36,620 nucleotides of DNA from a virus (lineage: Duplodnaviria; Heunggongvirae; Uroviricota; Caudoviricetes): positions 1 to 36,620 of the IMG/VR virus record IMGVR_UViG_2675903417_000002; one strand, written 5' to 3'. This document shows, in pieces, positions 23,880 to 33,644 of this stretch (the stretch's first letter is position 1; every line of letters begins with the position of its first letter). The position numbers were made by a program, and so were the translations under genes. Below the pieces are notes generated by a model. That model had not been told where the DNA came from. It did no database searches and saw only the letters and a program-made list of their open reading frames with translations.

Positions 23880-24206
23880 TTACTCCTTAGAACCACCAAA
23901 CTTATTACCGATTACTCTCATTGCAGCCCCACGAATAGCATCGACACCGATCAGCCCCACCCCACCACCAATGGCAACAGAAAGTGATTTAGGCCATCCG
24001 ACATACTCAAGAGCGGATGCAAAAGTCAGTGTCAGAGCGCCACAGAGCAAAATCTCGAGCGTTTTTCGCTTCCAGCCACCACCACCGCCAAAATAGGCAA
24101 TGCGCAAGCCAGCCATAACGATCGACATAATTACTGCGCCCAGCGGCGTGTCTCCACGCCACCAGCTCTGGACCAACTCCAGCCAGGTATTTGGGTTATG
24201 AGGCAT
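23880..24206 (-). CDS. Holin (lambda S-like class)
   Basis: Track ORF 23880..24263 trimmed to internal Met (MPHNPN...) because a terminator hairpin lies inside the longer version; TM segments and charged C-terminus. Confidence 0.65.
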   Translation of the reverse strand: MPHNPNTWLELVQSWWRGDTPLGAVIMSIVMAGLRIAYFGGGGGWKRKTLEILLCGALTLTFASALEYVGWPKSLSVAIGGGVGLIGVDAIRGAAMRVIGNKFGGSKE

Positions 24207-31810: not shown

Positions 31811-31864
31811 ACAATATGTACCTCCGATGTACATATTACATGATTGAAATGAACCTTCAAGATA

Positions 31865-31900: not shown

Positions 31901-32575
31901 ATGAAAACAATCCATGACATCCGGCGGTCTAACGCCAGAAAACTGAGAGATGGTGTTGGCGGGAATTCTTCCTTTGCCACTATGATTGATCGCGAGCCAA
32001 CCCAGACCAGCAGGTTTATGGGAGATGGTGCTACTAAAAATATCGGTGACAGCATGGCACGACACATCGAAAAATGTTTCGACCTGCCTGTCGGATGGCT
32101 CGATCAAGAACACCAGACAACGAACATCACAAAAAAACCTGATGTTTCAATCACTAATAAACAAATCACATTAGTCCCTGTCATATCATGGGTACAGGCC
32201 GGAGCATGGAAAGAAGTTGGATATTCTGAGGTTGATTTGAGCACAGCAGAAACGTATCCCTGCCCTGTACCCTGTGGGGAAATGACTTATATCTTGCGGG
32301 TGATAGGTGATTCAATGATTGATGAGTACCGCCCGGGAGACATGATTTTTGTCGATCCTGAAGTACCTGCCTGCCACGGTGACGACGTTATTGCATTGAT
32401 GCACGATACAGGTGAAACCACCTTCAAAAGGTTGATAGAAGATGGGACACAGCGTTATCTCAAAGCGTTAAACCCAAACTGGCCTGAGCCTTACATTAAG
32501 ATCAACGGTAATTGCTCTATAATTGGTACAGTGATTTTCTCAGGAAAACCAAGAAGATACAAAATCAAAGCCTAA
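31901..32575 (+). CDS. CI-like prophage repressor with C-terminal S24 (LexA-like) autopeptidase domain
   Basis: 224-aa ORF; C-terminal domain closely resembles P22 c2 / LexA S24 domain (VIGDSM, FKRL, KINGNC); N-terminal XRE-like HTH. Confidence 0.8.
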   Translation: MKTIHDIRRSNARKLRDGVGGNSSFATMIDREPTQTSRFMGDGATKNIGDSMARHIEKCFDLPVGWLDQEHQTTNITKKPDVSITNKQITLVPVISWVQAGAWKEVGYSEVDLSTAETYPCPVPCGEMTYILRVIGDSMIDEYRPGDMIFVDPEVPACHGDDVIALMHDTGETTFKRLIEDGTQRYLKALNPNWPEPYIKINGNCSIIGTVIFSGKPRRYKIKA

Positions 32576-32587
32576 TCAATGTTTATG

Positions 32588-32610
32588 AACCTGCTTCGGC
32601 AGGTTTTTTT
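32588..32610 (+). terminator. Rho-independent terminator after the repressor gene
   Basis: Stem aacctgc/gcaggtt, loop ttcg, followed by T7. Confidence 0.6.
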
Positions 32611-32614
32611 ATAC

Positions 32615-32642
32615 TTGACAATGTACCTTTGAGATACATAAT
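32615..32642 (+). promoter_or_regulatory. PL-like promoter (TTGACA - 16 bp - CATAAT) with two ATGTACC operator-like repeats
   Basis: Consensus -35 read directly; ATGTACC at 32621-32627 and 32641-32647. Confidence 0.4.
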
Positions 32643-33057: not shown

Positions 33058-33207
33058 CTAGTCGGCATCGCAGAAACAACAACGCTCGATCATGTTGAAA
33101 GCCGATTCGTAGAACTGTTTCTGCTGAGTGTCGCTGAGACAGGAAAAGAGCGACGTTACGATGATTTTATTAATTGCATTATCAAGTTCTTTTTCATCAA
33201 AAGTCAT
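33058..33207 (-). CDS. Small Cys-rich ORF (49 aa), speculative
   Basis: ATG 33205-33207 with AGGA RBS; C-terminus CCFCDAD; below the track cutoff. Confidence 0.25.
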   Translation of the reverse strand: MTFDEKELDNAINKIIVTSLFSCLSDTQQKQFYESAFNMIERCCFCDAD

Positions 33208-33459
33208 TTGATTTTCCTTTTATGTATACGGGCTTAAAAGGATACCACCGAGCCTGAAGTGGTGAAAAGACAGGCACATAACAGCTAAGTATTTTCAACC
33301 AGAGAGAATCCTTAGCGTTGTGGTGAATGCGGCTCAGCGCACGCGGGTTAAGGTTGAGGCTGACAGTCGACCTTCTGTGGATACCCACCCGTCTGGTGTG
33401 CAACCTTCGCCAGGCACCGGGAGGCACCCGGCACCACAACTTTATGCTGTGTGTAGTCC

Positions 33460-33600
33460 TGGCGGTACCAGTTTGTACCCTTGCTTCCGGCTGGTACCGT
33501 CCTTTTTACAAAACAGAGAAGAGCATCACCGGACGACGGGCTCATAACCCAATCCATCCGGGCGGCTGCCACCGCAGGTGTTCTTCTCTGTTTTGTGGAG
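33460..33600. other. Unexplained structured element: GGTACCAG/CTGGTACC inverted repeat plus a long inverted repeat (15-bp perfect arms about 55 nt apart)
   Basis: Arms ACAAAACAGAGAAGA (33508-33522) and TCTTCTCTGTTTTGT (33583-33597) read directly; lies in the untranslated leader of the yfdP-like gene. Confidence 0.3.
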
Positions 33601-33644
33601 AAACTAATCGGCCTTGCAGGGTCGATATGATGAGGAGCAGCAAA

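Follow-up and report, generated by a model that had tools for sequence, protein, structure and literature searches.

Just upstream of the yfdP-like gene in the virus record IMGVR_UViG_2675903417_000002 (IMG/VR), positions 33460-33600 hold two inverted repeats, and the question they raise is whether they act as DNA, as RNA or as part of a gene. A preliminary description of this 36,620-nt stretch (hereafter, the window) treated them as a single unexplained unit and offered a regulatory RNA, a third operator cluster or a recombination site as explanations. Sequence comparison identifies the window as a temperate phage of the SfV/SfII/e14 type with the early-left gene order cI, pL, orf33, small RNA, leader, yfdP-yfdQ-yfdR, xis and int. 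Both repeats sit in the 430-nt non-coding stretch between orf33 and yfdP, after pL, and their location is therefore the leader of the early-left operon. The supposed single unit is in fact a terminator followed by a separate leader structure. The upstream half (T1) is the terminator of an already-known kind of small RNA, while the downstream half (LH) is, on comparative evidence, a new and widespread leader RNA with an unexpected tRNA-like arm. We assign a probability of roughly 0.6 to the joint reading that repeat 1 is a Rho-independent terminator ending an RNA of the sRNA-17/STnc100 kind, for which the support is rapid amplification of cDNA ends (RACE) in a homologous prophage, and that T1 and LH form a terminator-gated early-left leader processed by RNase III.

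Both repeats are present at the positions first reported. Repeat 1 pairs CGGTACCAG (33463-33471) with CTGGTACCG (33491-33499), and repeat 2 consists of the 15-mers ACAAAACAGAGAAGA (33508-33522) and TCTTCTCTGTTTTGT (33583-33597). The 15-mers are perfectly complementary, as claimed, with a spacer of 60 nt instead of about 55. The DNA arms reach 25 nt at 84% complementarity (33508-33532/33572-33596), and RNA with G·U pairs forms a 25-bp helix, P1. Nowhere else in the window do perfectly inverted 15-mers lie within 120 nt of each other, and none arose in 100 dinucleotide-preserving shuffles. The segment 33280-33660 folds with a z-score of -5.86, and none of 100 shuffles folded equally well. The repeats are real and beyond chance.

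Repeat 1 is a GC-rich hairpin with a U-run, the form of an intrinsic terminator. A simple terminator scan did not list it because its 19-nt loop exceeds the 8-nt loop limit of the scan. The RNA that T1 would end has a multibranched core, whose closing strands are GUUGUGGUG and CACCACAAC (33317-33440), and a counterpart has been mapped elsewhere. In E. coli K1 RS218, a mEp460-like prophage produces sRNA-17, a 193-nt RNA defined by 5′ and 3′ RACE and Northern blot, whose 3′ RACE end, ...GGTACCGCTCTTTT, falls in the T1-equivalent U-run (PMC7719688). We located sRNA-17 on the mEp460 genome by means of the published full-length primers, RACE primers and Northern probe (PMC7719688). All of them map to the + strand and span 194 nt, from CGTTGTGGTGAATGCG to the U-run of the same hairpin. 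By sequence, the window likewise carries a + strand segment of about 193 nt upstream of yfdP that runs from CGTTGTGGTGAATGCG to the T1 U-run (33316-33508). The two RNAs share their location, strand, ends, closing helix, terminator and length (193-194 nt), whereas the interior of the core has strongly diverged; the sRNA-17 study reports no Rfam homologue and describes neither LH nor a link to STnc100 or DicF (PMC7719688). Homology to sRNA-17, including the shared T1, therefore explains repeat 1.

Two further families of prophage small RNAs connect to the same hairpin. An Rfam scan, one of the checks proposed in the preliminary description, places repeat 1 in a sub-threshold match to STnc100 (RF02076): the model matches 33287-33509 end to end, with repeat 1 as its terminal hairpin, at 41.2 bits (gathering score 47, E = 2e-7), so that the small RNA of the window has no match at threshold. 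The window shares GUGGUGAAU...CACCGGGAGGCACCCGGCACCA, the terminal hairpin and the U-run with STnc100/PasD (bioRxiv 10.64898/2026.05.13.724894), and both are prophage-borne, but the match covers hairpin 1 only and not LH. Typical STnc100 copies are found in late regions, such as downstream of stx2 (PMC12370729). DicF, from the dicBF region of the Qin prophage, is likewise a small RNA within an early-left operon that has a mid-operon terminator. In alignment, the T1 5′ arm TGGCGGTAYCAGTTT is common to the DicF terminator, whose own 5′ arm TGGCGGTATCAGTTT matches T1. Only this terminator arm is held in common: the DicF model (RF00039) scores 15.7 bits at 33448-33502, below its threshold of 48, against 76.7 bits for genuine DicF, which has a different seed. 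Qin contains an STnc100-like core, as does the window, but there the order is DicF followed by the core (34.4 bits, sub-threshold; L159 2953-3086), which runs up to dicB, and LH is absent. Judged from these matches, small-RNA modules are shuffled among early-left operons, with a different order in Qin, and hairpin 1 would tie sRNA-17, STnc100/PasD and DicF together as modules of one early-left leader system. In two Phytobacter loci, a tRNA-like gene occupies the slot of the small-RNA core just upstream of T1 (L022 1222-1300 and L027 1186-1264); ARAGORN calls it Ile with anticodon AAT, and the Rfam tRNA model gives 52.8 bits.

Repeat 2 folds into a three-way-junction RNA, LH, in which the basal helix P1 carries two arms, P2 and P3, and a small hairpin, P4, follows upstream of the ribosome-binding site (Table 1). 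In the predicted fold, the T1 U-run pairs with GGAGA about 95 nt downstream as part of the 25-bp P1 duplex. Because the 5′ arm of LH starts in the T1 U-run, LH forms only on transcripts that read through T1. A promoter scan found no consensus match between T1 and LH, where there is also no room for a promoter.

To examine conservation, we searched one genome per species for YfdP relatives, which yielded 31 loci, and analyzed covariation in an alignment of 32 diverse homologues (A3). In A3, 82.8% of cells pair. Double-sided changes occur in 22 pairs, compared with 11.3 ± 2.1 in shuffles, of which none in 500 reached that number; slid controls gave 8-15. Of the 20 pairs in the two main basal-stem helices, 11 are compensatory, and all three pairs of helix 6 (P3) change on both sides. 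RNAalifold independently predicts P1, the anticodon-like hairpin of P2, P3 and P4, with 16 of 27 pairs compensatory. The alignment has 137 G·U cells against 14 A·C cells, and the selected structure is therefore the + strand RNA rather than a DNA cruciform or the RNA of the other strand. By these comparative criteria LH is a selected + strand RNA structure. The original suggestion of a long RNA stem-loop or regulatory RNA is thus supported for both repeats: the stems of repeat 2 covary in homologues from many genera, and hairpin 1 falls where RACE placed the 3′ end of the homologous sRNA-17 (PMC7719688). Rfam 15 returned only generic hairpins over 33503-33626 (MIR1094 at 19 bits, gathering score 80; Hairpin ribozyme at 14.5, gathering score 65), which leaves repeat 2 without a family. 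LH, as defined by this comparison, is a previously undescribed and widely conserved leader RNA, and it adds to the phages of many enterobacterial genera a widespread structured RNA outside Rfam.

Table 1 Features of the early-left region and its leader, in window coordinates
Feature	Position	Strand	Description and basis
T1 intrinsic terminator	33461..33507	+	11-bp stem 33461-33471/33491-33501, 19-nt loop, C, U-run 33503-33507
Small RNA	33316..33508	+	193 nt; multibranched core closed by 33317-33325/33432-33440, linker UAUGCUGUGUGUAGUCC, then T1
LH three-way-junction RNA	33503..33601	+	P1 basal 25-bp helix 33503-33527/33577-33601; fold and covariation
P2 arm	33529..33561	+	CCGGA/UCCGG and GA/UC around GGG-CUCAUAA-CCC (33538-33550)
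P3 arm	33562..33575	+	GCGG-CUGCCA-CCGC; length varies in homologues, insertions to ~35 nt
GUGGAGAAACUAAC-type segment	33596..33607	+	Near-invariant columns; spans P1 3′ end and single-stranded linker
P4 small hairpin	33607..33626	+	Just upstream of ribosome-binding site; stems covary, loop keeps GCA/UGCAG core
yfdP	Shine-Dalgarno GAGGAG 33633-33638, ATG 33645, stop ends 34007	+	First gene past leader; RefSeq annotation of identical DNA
cro-like gene		-	Next to cI-cro operator region
Operators (A/T)TGTAC-N7-GTACA(A/T)	31817-33, 31867-83		Dyad derived from cI-cro region
CI-like repressor gene	31901-32575		Own terminator 32587-32606
pL-like promoter TTGACA-16-CATAAT	32615..32642	+	Promoter scan, 11/12 matches
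Third operator ATGTAC-N7-ATACAT	32621-32639 (32622-38 in pattern search)		Overlaps pL-like promoter; pattern search

LH lies upstream of the first early-left gene in phages of at least 15 enterobacterial genera. In most enterobacterial genera the leader keeps one order: a GC hairpin with U-run, a 25-30-bp stem that begins in the U-run, the three-way junction, GUGGAGAAACUAAC, P4, the Shine-Dalgarno sequence and the ATG. The long stems in other genera are similar in length, typically with one or two mismatches. Nucleotide identity in the stem region is 72-89%, compared with 57-76% for the YfdP protein, in Enterobacter, Kosakonia, Phytobacter, Mangrovibacter, Leclercia, Atlantibacter and others; in Providencia the long stem is preserved although its arms differ in sequence. 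BLAST comparisons show that 33460-33600 moves as a module together with yfdP and independently of the upstream small-RNA core, and DNA that matches the region around the repeats is present in over half of the complete E. coli genomes searched. In Buttiauxella (L012 1318-1500), an STnc100-like core is joined straight to UUUUA-UGUGGAGAACUAAC, with T1 and LH gone and the boundaries of the loss at the base of the long stem; this locus retains the GUGGAGAAACUAAC-type segment. The P3 loops in A3 fall into the classes UUGCAG, CUUCCUAA and CUGCCA. The second of these resembles an anti-Shine-Dalgarno sequence, but it occurs in only a subset of homologues and is absent from the window, and we rejected it as the basis of function.

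The P2 arm of LH contains the invariant motif CGGGCUCAUAACCC, which matches the anticodon stem-loop of tRNA-fMet exactly. Positions 33537-33550 (CGGGCTCATAACCC, 14 nt) align without mismatch to the E. coli initiator tRNA metZ and comprise three G-C pairs and the loop CUCAUAA. Across the 32 diverse homologues CGGCUCAUAACCCAAUC shows little or no variation, while the stems that enclose it covary. Where the motif varies, YUCAU is kept, in Providencia as well, and changes fall at loop positions 37 and 38; a Scandinavium locus (L033) has an arm that lacks CAU. The likeness ends with this hairpin, which is identical over 13-14 nt: LH lacks a cloverleaf as well as acceptor and T arms, no gene was called at LH by ARAGORN or by the tRNA model of Rfam, and the metZ alignment matches the anticodon arm only, so that we rejected a tRNA gene or tRNA remnant. 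A search of both strands found no site in the window complementary to the anticodon-like loop, and our literature search returned nothing relevant on CUCAUAA or on phage mimics of initiator tRNA. The only other near-match to the motif in the window, with three mismatches (GCCTCATAACCCAAAT, 24189-24204, - strand), lies within the first codons of a holin gene (MPHNPN...), and we attribute it to chance.

Scanning IMG/VR with GGCTCATAACCCAATC recovered at least 120 loci, 96 of them distinct. Among the matches listed, a hairpin and T-run stand immediately upstream of the motif in 91 of the 96 distinct loci, and most loci have T1 and LH ahead of yfdP; in others the gene immediately after this cassette is yfdR, xis or one of two types of RdgC-like gene. 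A short form, found upstream of holin genes, combines a terminator and a 7-8-bp closing stem with the same anticodon-like arm and a small arm. In vB_EcoM-689R2 (L160 3501-3624), it lies between the Q antiterminator gene and the holin gene, and one viral contig, L127, has a long form as well as a short one. The short form was also seen in L068, L040, L138 and L140. In early-left and late operons alike, the element is thus placed where the first terminator is passed, at the commitment to expression of xis and int and of the lysis genes.

These features suggest how T1 and LH might jointly gate and process early-left expression. T1 would end the small RNA of about 193 nt, and polymerases that read through it would make LH. 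P1 is a near-perfect duplex longer than the roughly 20 bp that mark an RNase III site, and a perfect duplex of two turns is expected to be an RNase III substrate in E. coli. A cut there would part the yfdP-xis-int message from the small RNA ahead of it, so that the message would start beside P4 with a new 5′ end, and would release the three-way junction as a small RNA that resembles tRNA. The lambda N leader, lambda sib and the early RNAs of T7 contain RNase III hairpins or processing sites. Like LH, these are long near-perfect duplexes in untranslated phage RNA, and in sib, too, the full duplex forms only on terminator read-through. LH differs from them in its conserved three-way junction and tRNA-like arm and has no sequence similarity to them, and its cleavage is a prediction. 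DicF, which RNase III, RNase E and termination together generate from a polycistronic early-left transcript (bioRxiv 10.1101/2023.04.14.536235), offers by analogy a precedent for RNase III action in an early-left prophage operon. In RS218, deletion of the sRNA-17 core raised yfdP about 95-fold, and yfdR also rose (PMC7719688, Table 1). Both genes lie just downstream of T1 and LH, and the rise looks like a cis effect, which the authors do not discuss.

Several points weigh against a processed, terminator-gated leader. It is duplex length alone that predicts RNase III cleavage of LH. At 7-8 bp, the closing stem of the short form falls below the length that RNase III requires, and processing therefore cannot be the conserved core function of the junction. 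A role in processing also leaves the strict conservation of CGGCUCAUAACCCAAUC unexplained. Some relatives dispense with LH, among them the Buttiauxella locus and the CPS-53 prophage of K-12. Finally, we identified in the window neither an N-like protein nor a put-like RNA that would carry polymerase past T1.

The conservation of the anticodon-like arm is what a different explanation addresses. In it, the core of LH would imitate the anticodon arm of the initiator tRNA as a decoy or mimic, made only after terminator read-through during lytic development and acting in trans or in cis; its partner could be a PIN toxin of the VapC/MvpT type, which cleaves tRNA-fMet at A38/C39, methionyl-tRNA synthetase, or the 30S P site with initiation factor 3. 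Such an RNA, gated by terminators in both the early-left and the late operons, could act as a decoy or sensor that protects or re-programs translation initiation in lytic growth. The exact 14-nt identity, the invariance of the motif amid covarying stems, and the retention of YUCAU despite changes at 37 and 38 and in Providencia all fit a mimic, as do the recurrence of the arm in the short form between Q and the holin gene, the presence of both forms in L127, and the position directly behind a terminator in nearly all of the distinct loci. Enteric VapC toxins are reported to cleave initiator tRNA (PMC5175351), in keeping with the toxin version. Yet we identified no partner for the arm, the variable loop positions 37 and 38 adjoin the reported VapC cleavage site, the Scandinavium arm lacks CAU, and the likeness to tRNA is confined to the anticodon arm, with ARAGORN and the Rfam tRNA model negative. 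We regard the mimic, with whichever of these partners, as a tentative possibility, considerably less probable than the processed leader. It is compatible with RNase III acting on the basal stem. An exact copy of the tRNA-fMet anticodon arm is unexpected at this place and opens to test the idea that phages imitate parts of tRNA with RNA in order to control processing, the initiation of translation or host toxins directed at tRNA.

LH might instead help polymerase past terminators. As a nut-like antitermination site, its boxA/boxC-like 3′ arm, with P4 as boxB, would load Nus factors or a phage factor onto polymerases past T1 and shield the long operon from Rho and subsequent terminators. The sequence of the 3′ arm in most genera is UGCUCUUUU...UGUGUGG, which is near the rrn boxA consensus UGCUCUUUA and the boxC consensus; P4 is conserved, with covarying stems, 20-25 nt downstream, and the element heads long operons. 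In the window, however, this stretch is degenerate (UGUUCUUCU). It is also paired within P1 and covaries with its partner, which suggests that selection acts on the pairing. LH moreover lies downstream of T1, not upstream, and no N-like open reading frame (ORF) was recognized in the window. The put RNA of HK022 is, like LH, a cis-acting RNA at the heads of operons, of about 70 nt with two hairpins, but it is located directly after the promoter and upstream of the terminators it suppresses (PMC9378689). Comparison with HK022 putL gave no similarity by sequence or by Rfam scan, and we rejected a put-like antiterminator. A nut-like role therefore appears doubtful.

We consider equally doubtful a role for LH as a translational operator, in which it would serve as a protein site, thermosensor or ligand sensor for the first gene without being cleaved. 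Its place directly upstream of the ribosome-binding site, whichever gene comes first, accords with such control, and so do the conserved GGAGAAACUAAC linker and P4 between LH and the Shine-Dalgarno sequence. The thrS operator is an anticodon-arm mimic in a leader and provides an analogy, although no synthetase gene lies downstream of LH. The predicted fold argues against this role in that it leaves the Shine-Dalgarno sequence and AUG free; we found no alternative pairing between LH and the initiation region, and the complementarity between the loop and the start codon extends over 3-5 nt and is inconsistent across homologues.

Action at the level of DNA, as a third cluster of operators for the CI-like repressor or as a recombination or cruciform site, is very improbable. 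Long inverted repeats are present, and T1 shares GTACC with the operators, a link pointed out in the preliminary description. The likeness is superficial: other genera keep the GC hairpin and U-run while losing GTACC. In a search of the window, the operator dyad occurs with one mismatch or fewer only at 31817, 31867 and 32622 and is absent from 33460-33600, and T1, with its GTACC, belongs to a block that is about 97% identical in mEp460, which is heteroimmune and has an unrelated repressor and operators. The compensatory changes and strand-asymmetric G·U pairing that assign the element to one RNA strand also disfavor a recombination site, and int is 2.2 kb from LH. A retron msr-msd was rejected, as the downstream genes are yfdP, yfdQ, yfdR, xis and int, with no reverse transcriptase.

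The least probable reading, and one we consider extremely unlikely, is that the stretch encodes a small protein: although it contains ORFs (33320-33547 and 33481-33630 on the + strand, 33348-33572 on the - strand) and RefSeq/PGAP annotates a "frameshifted hypothetical protein" pseudogene (L002 4121-4431, window 33320-33630), no frame is open across homologues, many of which have stops in all six, P3 insertions and deletions are not multiples of three, and conservation follows the paired columns. The first view that no ORF explains this stretch therefore stands. The RefSeq entry that covers the small RNA and LH is most plausibly an artefact in a non-coding region, and its annotation would be corrected to non-coding RNA.

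Transcription of the leader probably starts at the promoter at 32615-32642. Directly following the cI terminator, it is probably the pL equivalent, to judge from its sequence, and it is the likely source of the early-left transcripts that reach both repeats. The SfV annotation leaves this pL-like promoter unmarked and indicates only the cI-cro operator region. Between the promoter and the small RNA, a 49-codon ORF on the - strand (33058-33207) converges with orf33; it has a good ribosome-binding site, AAGGAA, 7 nt ahead of its ATG and is unannotated in RefSeq. A terminator-like hairpin on the same strand (33263-33244) lies just upstream of this ORF. A 45-nt box, ACCACCGAGCCTGAAGTGGTGAAAAGACAGGCACATAACAGCTAAG, at 33239-33284 has copies of 84-98% identity in other genera, where it lies at a variable distance upstream of the leader; L024 has two copies, and a related box stands upstream of dicF in Qin. 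Possible roles for this box are those of a promoter, processing site or nut-like site.

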